From Octopus vulgaris (Eukaryota), in the NCBI GenBank assembly GCA_951406725.2, contig OX597834.1:992001-1056000 (forward strand): DNA of 64,000 nt, written 5' to 3'. Under the pieces are notes generated by a model. The model saw nothing but the letters and a program-made list of their open reading frames with translations, was not told where the DNA came from and did no database searches. A program made the position numbers and the translations under genes. This document shows positions 31,479 through 51,757 of this stretch, piece by piece. Each line of letters begins with the position of its first letter. Position 1 is the first letter of the stretch.

Positions 31479-31965
31479 TATATATATATAGCTTACACTT
31501 ATATATATATATATATATATATATATATATATATATATATATATATATATATATATATATATATATATATATATATATATATATATATATATATATATAT
31601 ATATATATATATATATATATATATATATATATATATATATATATATATATATATATATATATATATATATATATATATATATATATATATATATATATAT
31701 ATATATATATATATATATATATATATATATATATATATATATATATATATATATATATATATATATATATATATATATATATATATATATATATATATAT
31801 ATATATATATATATATATATATATATATATATATATATATATATATATATATATATATATATATATATATATATATATATATATATATATATATATATAT
31901 ATATATATATATATATATATATATATATATATATATATATATAAATATATATATATAAATATATA
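31479..31965. repeat. (TA)n microsatellite, ~490 bp
   Basis: Directly visible. Confidence 0.95.
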
Positions 31966-32057
31966 TACTTTGATACTTTGATACTTTGATAGGTTTCGGC
32001 CATTATTGGCCCAGGCCATGTCTAACTTAATAGCACCACCTGGTGAAGTCTTTCAAG

Positions 32058-35000
32058 TCAGAATTTGGGCACTATGGCCCACTCAAGTAGAGAGTTATTG
32101 TTTACAGAGACATATCCGGGTGTAGGGGGTTTATCTGGGATTTCTTGAAGGAATCTGTCCAAAGACTTCTTGAACCCTATAGGGTCAGTTTCTGTTTTAA
32201 TGTGTTTTGGTGTAATGTTAAAGAGAGCGGGGCCAATTGAGGTGAAATAATTGTGCCGTATTGTTGTTATGAGATGAGAGTGCGATTTTTGTTTTGGGCG
32301 GATGGCACGGGGCCCAAGCCTTGGATGTACCTTAAAGGTGATGCCAACATCATTTGGGCAATGCTGATGGAATATTTTCCACATCATGCAGATGATGTAG
32401 CGCTCACGACGACGTTGGAGAGAATAGAGTTTTAGCTTTTCTAGTCGACCCCAATAGTCGAGGCCTGTCATGCCATCTATCTTTTTTGTGATTGCCCTTT
32501 GAGGTGCTTCAACTTTTATGATACCTTGTATTGTGTGGGGAGACCACAGTGGACAACAGTATTCAAGGTGGGGTCGGGCAAAAGTGGAGAAGAGAAGGAT
32601 AATGGTGTGGATATCTCTCGACTGGAAAGTTCTGAGAATCCAGGAACACATTCTGCGGGCCATGTCAACTTTGGTGTTTATATGAGTGGCCCAGCTTACG
32701 TTGTTGTCCACAATTACTCCCAAGTCTCTGATGTTGTTGGACGCCGTGAGAGTTTCACCTGAAGGAAGGGAGTATGGGAGTTTCAGGGCATCCTCTTTTC
32801 CAAAGTGGATTAGCTCAAATTTATCCTCGTTCAGCAGCATATTGTTTTTTTCTGCCCATTGGATAACAGCCAGTAGATCTGACTGAAGGCATGTCCGGTC
32901 ACTCGCCTCATTTATGACCTTCTGTAGCTTGGAGTCATCTGCAAAGATTTTTATGTTGCTGTGCTTGATGATGTCATTAATGTCATTAATGTAAATGATG
33001 AAAAGAAGTGGGCCCAGCACAGTGCCTTGCGGAACGCCACTACTGACTTTGGCTGGGCTTGATTTTACCCCTTCAACTACAACATGTTGAGATCTGTCTG
33101 TCAGGAAACACTTAATCCATTTCAGTAACTTTCCAGAGACACTAATGTTGGATAGTTTTTTCAATAGGATCTTGTGATCGACCCTGTCGAAGGCCTTACT
33201 GAAATCAAGGTAGATGACATCGGTGTTGAGCCCTCTCTCAAAGCTCTCAAAATGTCCTCAAAGTGATGCAGGAGCTGCGTTAGGCAGTCCCTTCCATTAC
33301 GGAACCCATGTTGGTTGGAGATCAGCCGTCTGTTGCTTTCCAGAAATTGGGTTATTCGAGATCTTACCACCCTCTCAAATACCTTGATGATATGAGAGGT
33401 GAGTGAGATCGGACGGTAATTCACTGCAAGGGACTTGTTTCCCTTTTTGAAAACTGGGACAACAGACTGGGACAGAAGGTTTTTTGGAATATAGCCAGCA
33501 TCCAGTGAGTTTCTCCACAGATTAGCAAGGGGAGATGCAAGTTGGTGTCGACACACCTTCAGGACACAAGCAGGGAACCTATCGGGGCCTACTGCTGAAT
33601 TGTGTTTTATTTCGTTTATCGCCGCTAAGACATCAGGGGCACTAAACGTTATGTCTGATATAGTGTGTTGGGGGTTGACATCACTGATACAGCCCAGATC
33701 GGCCATATCAGGATTGCTGAAAACAGAGCAGTATTGTTTCTGCAGTATCTCGGCCATGGATTTGGCATTATCTTGGAGAGTGCCAGTTTCGTCAATTAGA
33801 GGGCCTACAATGGAGACAGTGACCCTGCGTTTCCTCGCAAATGAAAAGAACACTTTGGGGTTGAGTTTGATTTTTTCAATGGCCCACTTCTCCTCAGCTG
33901 ATCTTTGGTTATTGATGAGGGTCTTCATGCATTGTTGGAGGTTATATTTTTTGGATTCAAGCAGTGCGATAGCCGTCGAATGTGTGTGTTGCTGTTGGCA
34001 GTACTTTAGTTTGTTAATTTTTTTGTTTGTTCTTTTTATTTTTCTGATAATGGTTTTTCTGTTTTGGGGGATTCTGCACTTTTTGTTCACAGGTCTTGGT
34101 GGGGAGTGTTTTGCACATATGTCTGTGACGGTGTCTACAAAGATCTGCCAAGATGTTTTATGGTTGGTGGAGATGTGTGTATGTGTAAAGGACCAGTCAA
34201 CATTTGATAGCTCGTTCCTGATTGCATCCCAGTTGGCTTTATGGAGATCCATGTTGTCAAATGGGTGGGCTGGAGGAAGGTCACTAGGATTAGCTTTCGG
34301 CTGGTGGAATTTCATGTTACAGAGAACCATGTCATGGTCTGAAAGAAGGGTTTTTTCCACTGTAACGTTATGTATAGTGTTAGTGTGGTTACTAAACACT
34401 AGGTCCAAAATGTTCTGATGTCTTGTTGGTGCAAGGACAAGTTGGGACAAGAAAAACTCATTCGTAAAGTCGAAAAGTGACTCTGCTGCTTCTTTGTCAG
34501 CGGTTGAGGCGGGAGTGCTTGGTTTCAAACAGTTTGTGGTCCAAGTCAACACAGGGTAGATTGAAGTCTCCCATCATGAGTATGTTGCTAGAATGGCACT
34601 GTTGAATAAAGCACTTAACGCTGTTGAGGCATTCTTTAAAGCACAGTATGGGTGTTTGGGGCGGCCTATAGAGCCCAATTACTGTCAGGTCATTGGCTTT
34701 GTTGTGCACGGTGACTGATTCACAGTAGCCGTTGGAGAATATACTATTTCCATCTGCCGTAAATGAATCATGCAGGAAAATGGCAGTTCCACCCTTCCTC
34801 CTGCCGATACGATCCGCGCGGATGGTTGTGAAATTCTTCACTCTCACTTCGGCTTCCAAGTGGGAGTTGTCAAGGTGGGTCTCAGTGAGAATGAAGAAAG
34901 GGATGTGGTGTGAATGGTTACCAACCCAGTCTTCAATGAATTGGACCTTCCATTTTTGTGCATTGATGGAAGGGCTGACACCTTGTGCATTGAGTAGGAA

Positions 35001-48687: not shown

Positions 48688-49419
48688 TATATATGTATGT
48701 ATATATATATATATATATATATATATATATATATATATATATATATGTATATACATATATATATATGTATATATATATATATATATATATATATATATAT
48801 ATATATATATATATATATATACATATATATACATATATAGATATATATATATATATATACATATATATATATATATATATATATATACATATATATACAT
48901 ATATATATATACATATATATACATATATATATATACATATATATATATATATATATATATACATATATATACATATATATATACATATATATATATACAT
49001 ATATATATATATATATATATATATATATATATATATATATATATATATATATATATATATATATATATATATATATATATATATATATATATACATATAT
49101 ATATACATATATACATATATATATACATATATATATGTACATATATATATACATATATATATACATATATATATATATATATATATATATTTATATACAT
49201 ATATATATATTTATATACATATATATATTTATATATATATATATATATATATATATATATATATATATATTTATATACATATATATATACATATATACAT
49301 ATATATATACATATATATATATATATATATATATATATATATATATATATATATATATATATATATATATATATATATTTATATACATATATATATATAT
49401 ATATATATATATATATATA

Positions 49420-51757
49420 GCCACTTTGAGAACGAGCGGGGCAAAGATGGCAAGAATGGAGACGATGAAAGAAGTCACCCCCACCTGGTGGACGCCCGGG
49501 AGGAGGTTTTGAATGAGAAACCTGCCCGGGAAGTGAACCCAGGTGCAAGTTCTCCAACCGGCAGCAAGGGCCATGGAGACGGAGAACCCGGTGAAGAGGT
49601 AGAGGTGAAGAGGCATGGCACAAAAGATTGTACAGCAGCTGACCTGGCTTCATCAAACCCAAGCCCGCAGGTGGGACTACCCACTATATACCAGACCACC
49701 ACAGCAAACAGACACAGGATGGACACCGCCGGCAACAACGTACACCTCACCTCGATGCTCCTACTGAACATCAGAGGACTGCAAACACTCAGTAACAGGA
49801 CAAAGATCCCGTTCCTGAGAGACTTTGTTGCATGCAATCAAGCCTTATGCATAGCACTTACGGAAACGCACCTGAAACCGGACATAGCAGATGCGGAGTT
49901 ACACATACCACAGTATGCTGTACTACGGACCGACAGGAAAGAAAGGAGTCATGGAGGTGTTGCTATGTACATCCATGAGGACCTCACACCCCAGGTCCTC
50001 TTGTCATACTCAAACTCGGTGTGTGACACACTAATTGTACATATTAGGCAACTTGATGTAGTTGTGTGTGCTACATATCGCCCTCCAGATGCCCCAAGCC
50101 ATGTGGGCAAGTTTGAAGACTGCCTTATAAAAATAGAAGAAATTCTAACCACATTAGAACAACACATAGGTGTGCTTCTTATGGGAGACTTCAATCTGCC
50201 CAATGTCAGATGGCCCGAGGGCCTTTCTCTCCCAGGAATGACAAGATGTGAACGAGGACAGGCGAGGTCCCTCCTGAACCTCATCAACACCCTGTACATG
50301 GAGCAGGTAATACTCCAACCAACCAGGGCAGGTAACACACTGGATCTCTGCTTCACAAATGACATGGATCTCATCCATAATGTGAAAGTGACACCGACAC
50401 TACTCTCGGATCACAACATGATAGAGCTGACCATGTACGGGCCAAAAGAGAGCACGGACATGCAGCCTACAAGAAACCCTCAAAATCTTTCCAGCTTGAA
50501 CTACCATAAGGCAAACTGGAAACAAATTGAAAGAGATCCTCAAACAAAACTGGCCTAAATGTCTCTCTTCGCCAGACATCGACGTGAAACTTCAACAATT
50601 CATGTCTGTAATGCAAGCCATATGCTACAAATGTGTCCCAGAGAGAAAGGCCACTGTACACAAGAACAAAATCCCCAGAGAGAGGAAAATTTTAATGAGA
50701 CGGCGTACGAAATTTTCAAATCGCCTAAACAAACAGATTGAAAGCAGTGAAAAGTCCCGCCTAAAAATAAAACTGTTGGAAATCGAAAAATGTCTGCAAC
50801 TCTCCCATGAAAAAGAAAGAGCAGACAAAGAAGCCTGGGCTATAGAAAACATAAAATCTAACCCCAGAGCTTTCTACAGGTATGCCAAAGAAACAGCTAC
50901 AGTGCACTGTAGAATAGGGCCACTCCTCGAAAAGGATGGCACACTTACAGGAAAACCAATGAGGGTAAGTGAAATACTGAATGAGCAATTCAAGAGTGTT
51001 TTCACTCCACCCCTTGGGCATCTCCAAATCACCAATCCAACTGACTTTTTACCACTGCAGATATAAAATCAGAGGCGGCGACGATAGATTACATCGATAT
51101 AAAGGAAGACGATGTAACCAAGGCTATAGATGAAATGAAAACAGACTCAGCTACTGGCCCCGATGGATTCCCGGCAATCCTCCTAAAAGCATGTAAGAGA
51201 GTCCTAGCAAGACCACTGCAGTTCCTCTTTCAGAGCTTCCTTGCAGCTGGCAAACTTCCAGGAAAACTGAAGGAAGGTAAAATATGCCCCATTCATAAAG
51301 GAGGTAGCAGTGTGGAAGCCAAGAACTATAGATCTATCTCTCTGACCTCACACATCAGCAAGGTCATGGAACGAATAGTCAGAAGGAAGCTGATCACCTT
51401 CCTTGAAGAGAATGACTTGCTGCCCAACACCCAACATGGTTTCCGACCAGGGAGAAGCTGTTTTACTCAGCTCCTACAACACTATGACTGGGTGCTGAAA
51501 CGGCTGCTCAACCACTCAAATGTGGAAGTGATATATCTCGACTTTGCAAAGGCCTTTGATAAAGTCGATCATGGAATGATATGTCACAAACTGCGTGATC
51601 TCAACATAGTTGGAAAACTGGGAGAATGGCTTCATGACTTTCTGAAGGATAGAAGTCAGGTGGCAGTGGGACCACTACTGTTCATAATGGCCCTCTCAGA
51701 CATGCCCTCAGCCACGCAGAGAGCCACGATCACAAGTTATGCAGATGATACAAAAGT
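49420..51757 (+). mobile_element. LINE family B, copy 3 (5'-truncated, runs into the gap)
   Basis: ORF1 fragment fused to APE; RT present up to YADDTK at the N-run. Confidence 0.9.

Follow-up and report, generated by a model that had tools for sequence, protein, structure and literature searches.

The window analysed is a 64,000-nucleotide stretch of the Octopus vulgaris genome (contig OX597834.1), whose interval 31479..51757 was described in an earlier note as holding four LINE copies from two young families, a description that is confirmed here as real. The two families, LINE-A and LINE-B, share 37% identity in ORF2, and each is represented genome-wide by at least 150 near-identical copies. 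A (TA)234 array (31500..31967) adjoins the 3' end of LINE-A (31966..36592, minus strand), a full-length copy with the 3' tail (TATCAAAG)3, which is 98.5% identical to the intact copy L195, agrees at its 5' end with other full-length copies and is bordered there by a TA-rich (ATATATAAAT)n array (36593..36971). A (TA)150 array (37385..37684) lies at the 3' end of LINE-B1 (37685..42717, minus strand), which has an (ATCA)n tail and a degenerate TA/CA tract as 5' flank. Its status as a full-length copy was considered and ruled out, since B1 is truncated inside the ~89-bp tandem array of the LINE-B 5' UTR (41672..42717, minus strand) and lacks the first ~640 nt of the family sequence. Further along, a (TA)246 array (45382..45873) adjoins the 3' end of LINE-B2 (45874..48687, minus strand), 5'-truncated directly upstream of the ORF2 AUG, and another TA array (48688..49419) is common to the 5' ends of B2 and LINE-B3 (49420..51757, plus strand), which stand head to head. 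B3 is 5'-truncated in ORF1 and its 3' end is hidden by an N gap (51758-51857). An assembly mirror of B2 and B3 was ruled out by their 2-5% divergence and by different deletions (267 nt near 48335 with several small indels in B2, ~368 and 62 nt in B3), and B3 is thus an independent insertion. All seven visible LINE ends in the cluster adjoin TA-rich arrays, as had been claimed, and the clustering itself extends outwards, with 7 extra members in the ~73 kb flank versus 1 in 200 kb, which is explained by a preference for long arrays common to the families, an explanation that does not call for the self-reinforcing hotspot proposed in the earlier note. A probable remnant of a Penelope-like element also lies inside the cluster.

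The ORF2 frame, encoding an APE endonuclease and a reverse transcriptase (RT), spans 32058..35189 (minus strand) in LINE-A and 37773..40873 (minus strand) in LINE-B, corresponding in intact copies to 1043 aa from stop to stop and to 1039 aa, respectively. Frame-breaking indels are present in ORF2 of all four cluster copies, among them 1-nt indels at 34543 and 33228 in LINE-A and a 1-nt deletion near 39472 in B1. ORF2 matches the Pfam families PF03372/PF14529 and PF00078, with human L1 ORF2p as the best PDB match. The 3' tails are short tandem repeats of the (TATCAAAG)n, (ATCA)n and (TCTAAGTTT)n-like types without poly(A), and 5' truncation is frequent, at scattered points. In a quick tree of 47 RTs, which had no named references or outgroup, took its ORF1 labels from sequence motifs and omitted family C due to short coverage, LINE-A and LINE-B group with relatives on a single branch (SH-aLRT 96) that is separate from the esterase-type and other elements. 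Both families probably belong to the CR1 group of APE-type LINEs.

Insertion into (TA)n arrays

Microsatellite-targeted retrotransposition, proposed in the earlier note from the cluster, obtains strong support genome-wide against both background and a control family. When a TA 8-mer within 70 nt is taken as the criterion, 64/67 young 3' ends lie beside (TA)n (LINE-A 37/38, LINE-B 27/29), far above the chance level of 13% estimated from 20 hand-chosen 10-kb stretches. TA is found at 14/19 of the family F 3' junctions, at 5/9 and 13/20 of those of older A and B copies, and at 5/28 of those of RTE elements; these control copies are older (~90%) than the young A/B copies, and the age-matched comparison is weaker (18/29 versus 5/28, p 0.001). 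Enrichment extends to the other end of the elements, as 42/58 of the 5'-truncation points (A 19/25, B 23/33) fall within 28 nt of TA, with a background of 7.5%, and full-length LINE-B 5' ends are at TA in 21/21 scored cases. Target-site duplications are unreadable inside (TA)n. Motifs interrupting the arrays agree across both flanks of the same copy (cosine 0.70 versus 0.24 +/- 0.06; 26 copies, 0/5000 shuffles), and hence the arrays are older than the insertions. That young A and B copies sit in such pre-existing (TA)n arrays is strongly supported, and this recurrent use of one pre-existing repeat at both junctions characterizes them as target-specific non-LTR retrotransposons.

ORF1 and the choice of target

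The combination of a Myb/SANT-like N-terminus with CCCH fingers, noted earlier for both ORF1 proteins, is indeed present in each family. ORF1 of LINE-A (35063..36268, minus strand) contains the Myb/SANT-like part (~36053-36247), a Gln/Pro-rich linker, two CCCH-type fingers (~35396-35626) and a C-terminal x-F-L-x-M helix, and the 303-aa ORF1 of LINE-B (40702..41613, minus strand) contains a Myb/SANT fold (~41431-41607) and one CCCH finger (~41029-41094). At the profile level, PF13837 matches the ORF1 of L195 with E 2e-5 and is detected in 7/21 ORF1 members, every one under the curated cut-off. A search of the PDB by sequence with the ORF1 profile gave weak, unrelated matches only. A single-sequence fold (pLDDT 57, coiled-coil matches only) was superseded by an alignment-based model of the N-terminus (pLDDT 85), which has three helices with a helix-turn-helix and an N-terminal Trp, as in Myb/SANT domains. 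Among the 50 structure matches listed (VIA) most are Myb, SANT or trihelix proteins, the best being LUX (Z 8.0, rmsd 1.8 over 55), RAD (7.8), ARR1 (7.7) and GT-1 (7.6); Foldseek returned no match at E 0.001. The modelling supports a Myb/SANT fold of the ORF1 N-terminus, predicted to be a DNA-binding domain. Such an ORF1 lies outside the described CR1-group types I-IV (RRM+CCHC, L1-like, PHD, esterase), and metagenome relatives have an ORF1 of PHD plus CCCH, for which a metagenome scan with the PHD-CCCH ORF1 P0034 gave no match. This mismatch does not exclude membership of the CR1 group, because ORF1 is modular within it.

Target sequence choice is most likely set by the endonuclease. As the earlier note suggested, the Myb domain might instead pick the target: in this reading, which we consider serious but rather unlikely, the frameshift discussed below would bring a sequence-specific Myb domain that binds TA into one protein with the endonuclease. 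A Myb domain is present in every TA-flanked family examined, the frameshift signal lies downstream of Myb and CCCH so that both would be carried on the fusion, and the fold matches include GT-1, Zeste and TRF1. The three closest metagenome relatives have a PHD/CCCH ORF1 without a Myb match, and TA does not follow their 3' tails (two are readable and one contig ends in the tail), but these non-TA relatives are single collapsed contigs. Nor does fold likeness in a model by itself establish a function, and in the available text of two reviews (PMC2881922, PMC3812793) the endonuclease is held to select the target, with unrelated Penelope-like elements also targeting (TA)n in the sections available of PMC8557442. 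A Myb-less CR1-group family, which would serve as a control, was sought in the octopus genome, and the search yielded another Myb family (F). Under endonuclease-set targeting the Myb domain may still contribute DNA or chromatin affinity.

The ORF1-ORF2 overlap

In all six octopus families examined (A-F) ORF2 lies in the -1 frame relative to ORF1 and is open through an in-frame slippery heptamer, U_UUU_UUR or A_AAU_UUU, with ORF1-ORF2 overlaps of 127-331 nt. In LINE-A the heptamer is U_UUU_UUA (35171..35177, minus strand), situated 13 nt past the stop that opens the ORF2 frame and identical in four short-read contig sets, and in LINE-B it is U_UUU_UUG (40858..40864, minus strand), 10 nt into the ORF2 frame. 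The latter variant, accepted here for families B and E, is a weaker heptamer. Family C has GUG at the position of the UUR codon of B, D and E, and its A_AAU_UUU is placed one codon upstream. Synonymous conservation is higher in the slip region than in the rest of ORF1 (26/37 versus 107/248); dual coding by itself would raise it at the overlap, and the Phe-Leu residues of the slip site could also be conserved for the ORF1 helix. Contigs from runs that may be RNA cross the family A junction without a joint, and are not taken as a sign of expression.

A similar arrangement is found in metagenomes, where 21/29 relatives have ORF2 in the -1 frame. Strict heptamers are present in 17/21 of these elements, versus 2.1 expected and 2 and 3 in the other phases, and in 16/21 the heptamer lies no more than 75 nt into the overlap, against 0.8 expected, although p-values for such counts overstate independence, as the elements are related and three metagenome pairs exceed 55% identity. 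The four elements without a strict heptamer carry G_GAA_AAC or C_CCU_UUG. By lineage, the heptamers vary among A_AAA_AAC, G_GGA_AAC, U_UUA_AAC and C_CCU_UUA, and encode different residues.

The earlier suggestion that a frameshift would fuse ORF1 to the endonuclease acquires strong sequence support from this -1 frame and conserved heptamer, and a gag-pol-like fusion of ORF1 and ORF2 by -1 frameshifting is likely. An unlikely alternative is that translation of ORF2 has a start of its own, through termination-reinitiation or internal initiation, also at non-AUG codons, with the heptamers a by-product of a Phe-Leu motif. Such separate synthesis has been described for L1 and SART1 in the portions available of PMC2881922 and PMC3894237, and an AUG is kept 16-19 codons ahead of the endonuclease in families B, D, E and F (in LINE-B at 40748-40750, 16 codons ahead). 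It is also in keeping with the failure to find a conserved 3' stimulator, which would be expected 5-9 nt downstream of the heptamer: the mean folding z is -0.35 downstream versus 0.05 upstream, values below -2 downstream are confined to A, C and L419, and Rfam gave no match at gathering score over 31000-52000. Hairpins do occur downstream of the slip site in A, C, L419 and L429, pseudoknots being outside the folding scan. Against separate synthesis, no AUG precedes endonuclease motif I in families A and C (the first Met of the LINE-A frame is ~204 codons in), nor is there one before the endonuclease in 11/18 correctly parsed metagenome -1 elements. Furthermore, the slippery codon choice given Ser-Phe-Leu has a probability of only ~0.018 under ORF2 codon usage, and neither the different residues encoded by the heptamers of other lineages nor their position early in the overlap fits a Phe-Leu by-product.

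Length variation of the T-run at the family A slip site was set aside as evidence of slippage. The run is altered in 31/71 copies (-1 in 18, -2 in 8, -3 in 4, +1 in 1), scattered over haplotypes. The same context on the opposite strand in the LINE-B 5' UTR varies too (8/18, a query-biased sample), whereas slip sites elsewhere barely do (B 1/35, C 0/28, F 1/9). Short-read contigs contain T6 only at the family A run, but such contigs drop rare variants. The variants may represent context-dependent assembly error.

Proposed mechanism and known systems

Taken together, we favour, with a probability of about 0.7, a reading in which young CR1-group-like LINEs insert into pre-existing (TA)n and express their endonuclease-RT by programmed -1 frameshifting, fused to a Myb-CCCH ORF1. 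Translation would mostly end at ORF1p, of 409 aa in LINE-A and 303 aa in LINE-B, with a smaller fraction of ribosomes slipping to give a fusion of ~1410 (A) or ~1290 aa (B) that carries the Myb domain. The APE domain would nick inside TA runs, aided by long, easily unwound arrays, and the short repeat tail could pair with the nicked TA end and prime reverse transcription. As (TA)n reads the same on both strands, insertions occur in both orientations, and several families would accumulate in the same long arrays. That there is no active targeting, and TA is element-made (by tail slippage or untemplated addition), or reflects survival in neutral microsatellite DNA or an assembly artefact, is very improbable and already largely refuted: microsatellites are abundant in this genome (7.5-13% background), arrays can grow after insertion and N gaps lie near arrays at several loci, but TA is also found at scattered 5'-truncation points, locus-specific interruptions agree on both sides, the youngest copies are the most enriched, contrary to slow accumulation, and RTE copies of the same genome are at background.

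What is new here is the invertebrate breadth of the -1 slip, the Myb-CCCH ORF1 and the TA specificity. A literature search conducted outside most subscription journals, Repbase Reports and supplements turned up no description of a Myb-CCCH ORF1, of CR1-like LINEs specific for TA or of CR1 slippery sites. Frameshifting at overlapping CR1 ORFs may already have been suggested in earlier publications. The lineage-specific conserved heptamers make -1 frameshifting in invertebrate CR1-like elements directly testable, and intact young copies could be used directly in reporter, nicking and domain-swap assays. If true, fusion would explain the shuffling of ORF1 modules, which would travel with the enzyme. 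A broader and more doubtful proposal is that throughout animals the enzyme of CR1-group LINEs is produced in a gag-pol-like manner, by -1 frameshifting, with the exchangeable N-terminal module of ORF1 (PHD, esterase or Myb) as a covalent targeting or chromatin-reading head, and that in octopods Myb replaced PHD, redirecting a whole radiation to (TA)n. The recently and massively amplified (TA)n-specific radiation in Octopus adds a new target and lineage to site-specific LINEs and bears on the density of microsatellite-embedded repeats in cephalopod genomes.

In the available text of PMC4120745 and PMC13343379, CR1-group LINEs include CR1, L2, Crack, Daphne and Kiri, and the octopus families resemble them in an ORF2 with APE and RT, a short-repeat 3' tail without poly(A), 5' truncation and a modular ORF1, but differ in their Myb/SANT plus CCCH ORF1 and strong (TA)n specificity; Myb, SANT and CCCH are absent from the main text of PMC4120745, as are the words Myb and CCCH from the text available for PMC13343379. 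Simple repeats already present in the genome also serve other non-LTR elements as a safe harbour, namely Waldo (ACAY), Mino (AC), Kibi (TC), Koshi (TTC) and Dong (TAA) as listed in PMC3812793, and Togen (TG) in PMC4640811, whose available sections assign the majority of target-specific families to the early-branched, Tx1 and R1 lineages, whereas the octopus elements target (TA)n and are of a CR1-like lineage. Naiad and Hydra Penelope-like elements of aquatic invertebrates prefer (TA)n according to the sections available of PMC8557442, but have a GIY-YIG endonuclease and an unrelated RT, and the common target is therefore convergent. As in gag-pol -1 frameshifting, outlined in the text available for PMC5009743, the octopus elements have an upstream ORF for a predicted nucleic-acid-binding protein, a -1 overlap and an X_XXY_YYZ heptamer, that of LINE-A being the HIV-1 heptamer U_UUU_UUA (given in part of PMC4373837); unlike retroviral and LTR systems they are LINEs, their frameshift is predicted, and no conserved downstream hairpin or pseudoknot was detected. 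LINE ORF2 translation is treated as an open question in the available part of PMC3894237, with reinitiation as its worked example, and L1 and SART1 (PMC2881922, PMC3894237) likewise express both ORFs from one LINE RNA, with little ORF2 product. What sets the octopus ORFs apart is their overlap of 127-331 nt, which holds a slippery site, and the frequent lack of an AUG. In R2 and TRAS, which are target-specific non-LTR elements as well, a Myb-like domain resides in the RT-bearing ORF, whereas the octopus Myb domain stands at the start of ORF1, and recoding would be needed to link it to the enzyme.

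TA-rich arrays at the ends of two LINE families

The window contains four LINE copies of two families, A and B, namely a full-length LINE-A (31966-36592, minus strand) and the 5'-truncated copies LINE-B1 (37685-42717, minus), LINE-B2 (45874-48687, minus) and LINE-B3 (49420-51757, plus). The ORF2 proteins of the two families are 36.6% identical, and ORF2 carries frame-breaking indels in 4/4 copies. In the 2.8-Gb genome, the endonucleases of A and B each have at least 150 matches, with 100% protein identity for every A match listed and 99-100% among the B matches listed, many lying inside open frames of 1043 aa and 1039 aa, respectively. 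Both families are hence young, as the earlier note had proposed, despite the broken ORF2 of the window copies, and the placement of every visible end in TA-rich repeats was confirmed for 7/7 ends, the eighth falling inside an N gap.

The genome-wide enrichment of TA at 3' junctions, suggested for checking in the same note, was indeed observed when junctions were scored for a perfect TA 8-mer at most 70 nt from the 3' end or 28 nt from the 5' junction, with 20 stretches of 10 kb supplying the background positions and excluding the window's own copies, duplicate loci (L046, L103), L057 without a 3' end, 5' ends beside N gaps (L193, L226) and the 5' end of L098 at the locus edge. TA was present at the 3' end of 37/38 young A and 27/29 young B copies, as compared to 13.2% of background positions and 5/28 RTE control copies; older copies gave 5/9 (A) and 13/20 (B), and family F 14/19. 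At the 5' junction, with a background of 7.5%, TA was found in 19/25 truncated A, 23/33 truncated B, 11/14 full-length A and 4/5 full-length B copies, and in a second full-length B set (three loci shared with the first; 9/30 without an exact anchor left unscored) at 21/21 scored ends. Interruption motifs of the arrays agree across the insertion in 26 copies interrupted on both sides (cosine 0.70 versus 0.24 +/- 0.06; reached by 0/5000 shuffles), and the array is therefore older than the insertion. The TA tract behind 62 young 3' ends has a median of 80 nt versus 14 nt at background TA positions, owing either to a preference for long arrays or to array growth after insertion. At 7/40 loci a second member lies within ~73 kb of flank, compared with a single one across 200 kb of background sequence (p 6e-4), so that insertion hotspots are real; they may be self-reinforcing, as the earlier note had proposed, although a shared preference for long arrays would explain the clustering. 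The association with TA is a real genome-wide feature, and we infer active insertion (probability about 0.93), in which target-primed reverse transcription would proceed into TA arrays already present. Short pieces of the elements' own 5' end recur beside the 5' junction in L196, L207, L224, L349 and L505, sometimes with TA runs between, which suggests repeated template jumps during insertion.

Several other repeats accompany these copies. The RTE-type fragment at 30355-31478 (minus), whose family served as control, has a (GAT)n tail and a 5' side cut by a TA array. A near-perfect palindrome of ~290 bp (37098-37384), adjoining (TA)n and also found beside TA at L041 and L060, carries a hammerhead-like CUGAUGA...GAAA core in both arms and probably represents inverted ends of a Penelope-like element (PLE); an Rfam search of 31000-52000 gave no hammerhead match. 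An inverted duplicate (81%; 42767-43054 and 44796-45125) lies inside a 2.4-kb TA/CA microsatellite tract between B1 and B2. Farther out are a Merlin/ISXO2-like transposase fragment (2837-3463, plus; PF12762), a hAT/SPIN-like transposase frame (19063-20448, minus; PF18658, PF14291) and a 1.1-kb (ATA)365 array (53716-54809). One background stretch (L238:3989-5008) contains a long RT frame of another non-LTR element, probably of the restriction-endonuclease type.

The ORF1 head and the choice of target

The combination of a Myb/SANT-like N-terminus with CCCH fingers, noted earlier for both ORF1 proteins, held up, with two CCCH-type fingers in A and one in B. Pfam PF13837 matches on ORF1 are sub-threshold (E 2e-5 for A; 7/21 homologues), and Foldseek with the B N-terminus model yielded no match at E 0.001, a MYB domain ranking second. 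As modelled from an alignment (pLDDT 85), the B N-terminus has a Myb fold, with Myb, SANT or trihelix domains forming most of the 50 best structural matches (top Z 8.0, rmsd 1.8 over 55 residues). Four more Myb-CCCH families occur in the octopus genome, the young C (L087, L291-L320), E (L391-L401) and F (L491-L509) and the older D (L351-L370). In relatives from other assemblies and metagenomes, ORF1 contains PHD plus CCCH (P0034, L411) or CCCH without a Pfam match (L414, L415), and the Myb profile matched none of these four; since the heads differ between octopus families and relatives, the N-terminal head is modular.

Selection of the target by the Myb domain would agree with its presence in every TA-flanked family examined and with the Myb-less L414 and L415, each a single contig, which do not run into TA, but it is unlikely, as excerpted reviews name the endonuclease as main target determinant (PMC2881922, PMC3812793) and (TA)n is preferred also by unrelated PLEs (excerpt of PMC8557442). 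The target is probably chosen mainly by APE, the ORF2 endonuclease domain, together with array structure.

Frame relation of ORF1 and ORF2

In six octopus families (A-F; endonuclease identity 30-74% among A-E), ORF1 and ORF2 share an overlap of 127-331 nt, ORF2 being in the -1 frame, with one in-frame slippery heptamer per family at a common position: U_UUU_UUA in A, D and F, U_UUU_UUG in B, E and some D, and A_AAU_UUU in C, where GUG occupies the UUR position of B, D and E and the heptamer sits one codon upstream. No AUG precedes endonuclease motif I in A and C, and one is located 16-19 codons ahead of it in B, D, E and F. Synonymous identity among B, D and E is higher around the slip site than elsewhere in ORF1 (26/37 versus 107/248), for which dual coding alone could suffice. 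The A junction was recovered gap-free in four short-read contig sets, and thus the two-frame layout is no assembly error. On this sequence evidence, -1 frameshifting likely yields a Myb-CCCH-APE-RT fusion, a well-supported and testable mechanistic claim, in which a ribosomal slip would join the Myb-CCCH head to the APE-RT enzyme (predicted 1411 aa in A, 1286 aa in B). The T6 slippery run of A (35171-35177 in the window) varies in length, chiefly by deletions, in 31/71 family copies (L131-L160, L199-L209, L251-L290), possibly an assembly artefact of that context; its -2 form joins ORF1 and ORF2 as a single 1468-aa frame.

Among 80 metagenome loci, the endonuclease start could be read, together with DNA upstream of it, at 30, and 29 of these also had an ORF1. 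ORF2 is in the -1 phase relative to ORF1 in 21, in the +1 phase in 4 and in frame with it in 4. A strict heptamer lies inside the overlap in 17/21 -1 elements versus 2.1 expected from the ORF1 background (12 in 7159 codons) and counts of 2 and 3 in the two remaining phases; as the elements are related, nominal p-values are too small. In 16/17 it falls within the first 75 nt of the overlap, and its type depends on lineage (U_UUU_UUA, A_AAA_AAC, G_GGA_AAC, C_CCU_UUA, or U_UUA_AAC as in L429, L436 and L452). The four -1 elements without a strict heptamer have G_GAA_AAC (three) or C_CCU_UUG (one), and ORF1 ends on U_UUA_AAC plus stop in two copies of other phase. General downstream structure was not found at slip sites (mean folding z -0.35 downstream versus 0.05 upstream). 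The esterase-type L419 and L429 have the most canonical -1 cassettes of the set, in which a GC-rich hairpin comes no more than ~11 nt after the U_UUU_UUA or U_UUA_AAC on which ORF1 ends. In L431, L449 and L456, ORF2 continues in the frame of ORF1 past one stop in UGA-C or UAG-CAA context, which suggests readthrough as another possible route to fusion.

Relation to known elements

The anatomy of the elements fits the CR1 group, and a quick RT tree without named references places A, B and the CCCH-bearing relatives on one branch (SH-aLRT 96), separate from esterase-type elements. LINEs targeting ACAY, AC, TC, TTC and TAA (PMC3812793) or TG (PMC4640811) microsatellites are known, and TA is absent as a target from the excerpts of these accounts. 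Myb and CCCH are likewise unmentioned in the ORF1 surveys PMC4120745 (main text) and PMC13343379. Octopus LINE entries of Repbase could already cover part of these findings. Reinitiation, IRES and 2A are reviewed as routes of ORF2 biogenesis, with the question called open (PMC3894237, in part). In the excerpted frameshifting review PMC5009743, HeT-A and TART are the sole non-LTR elements named.
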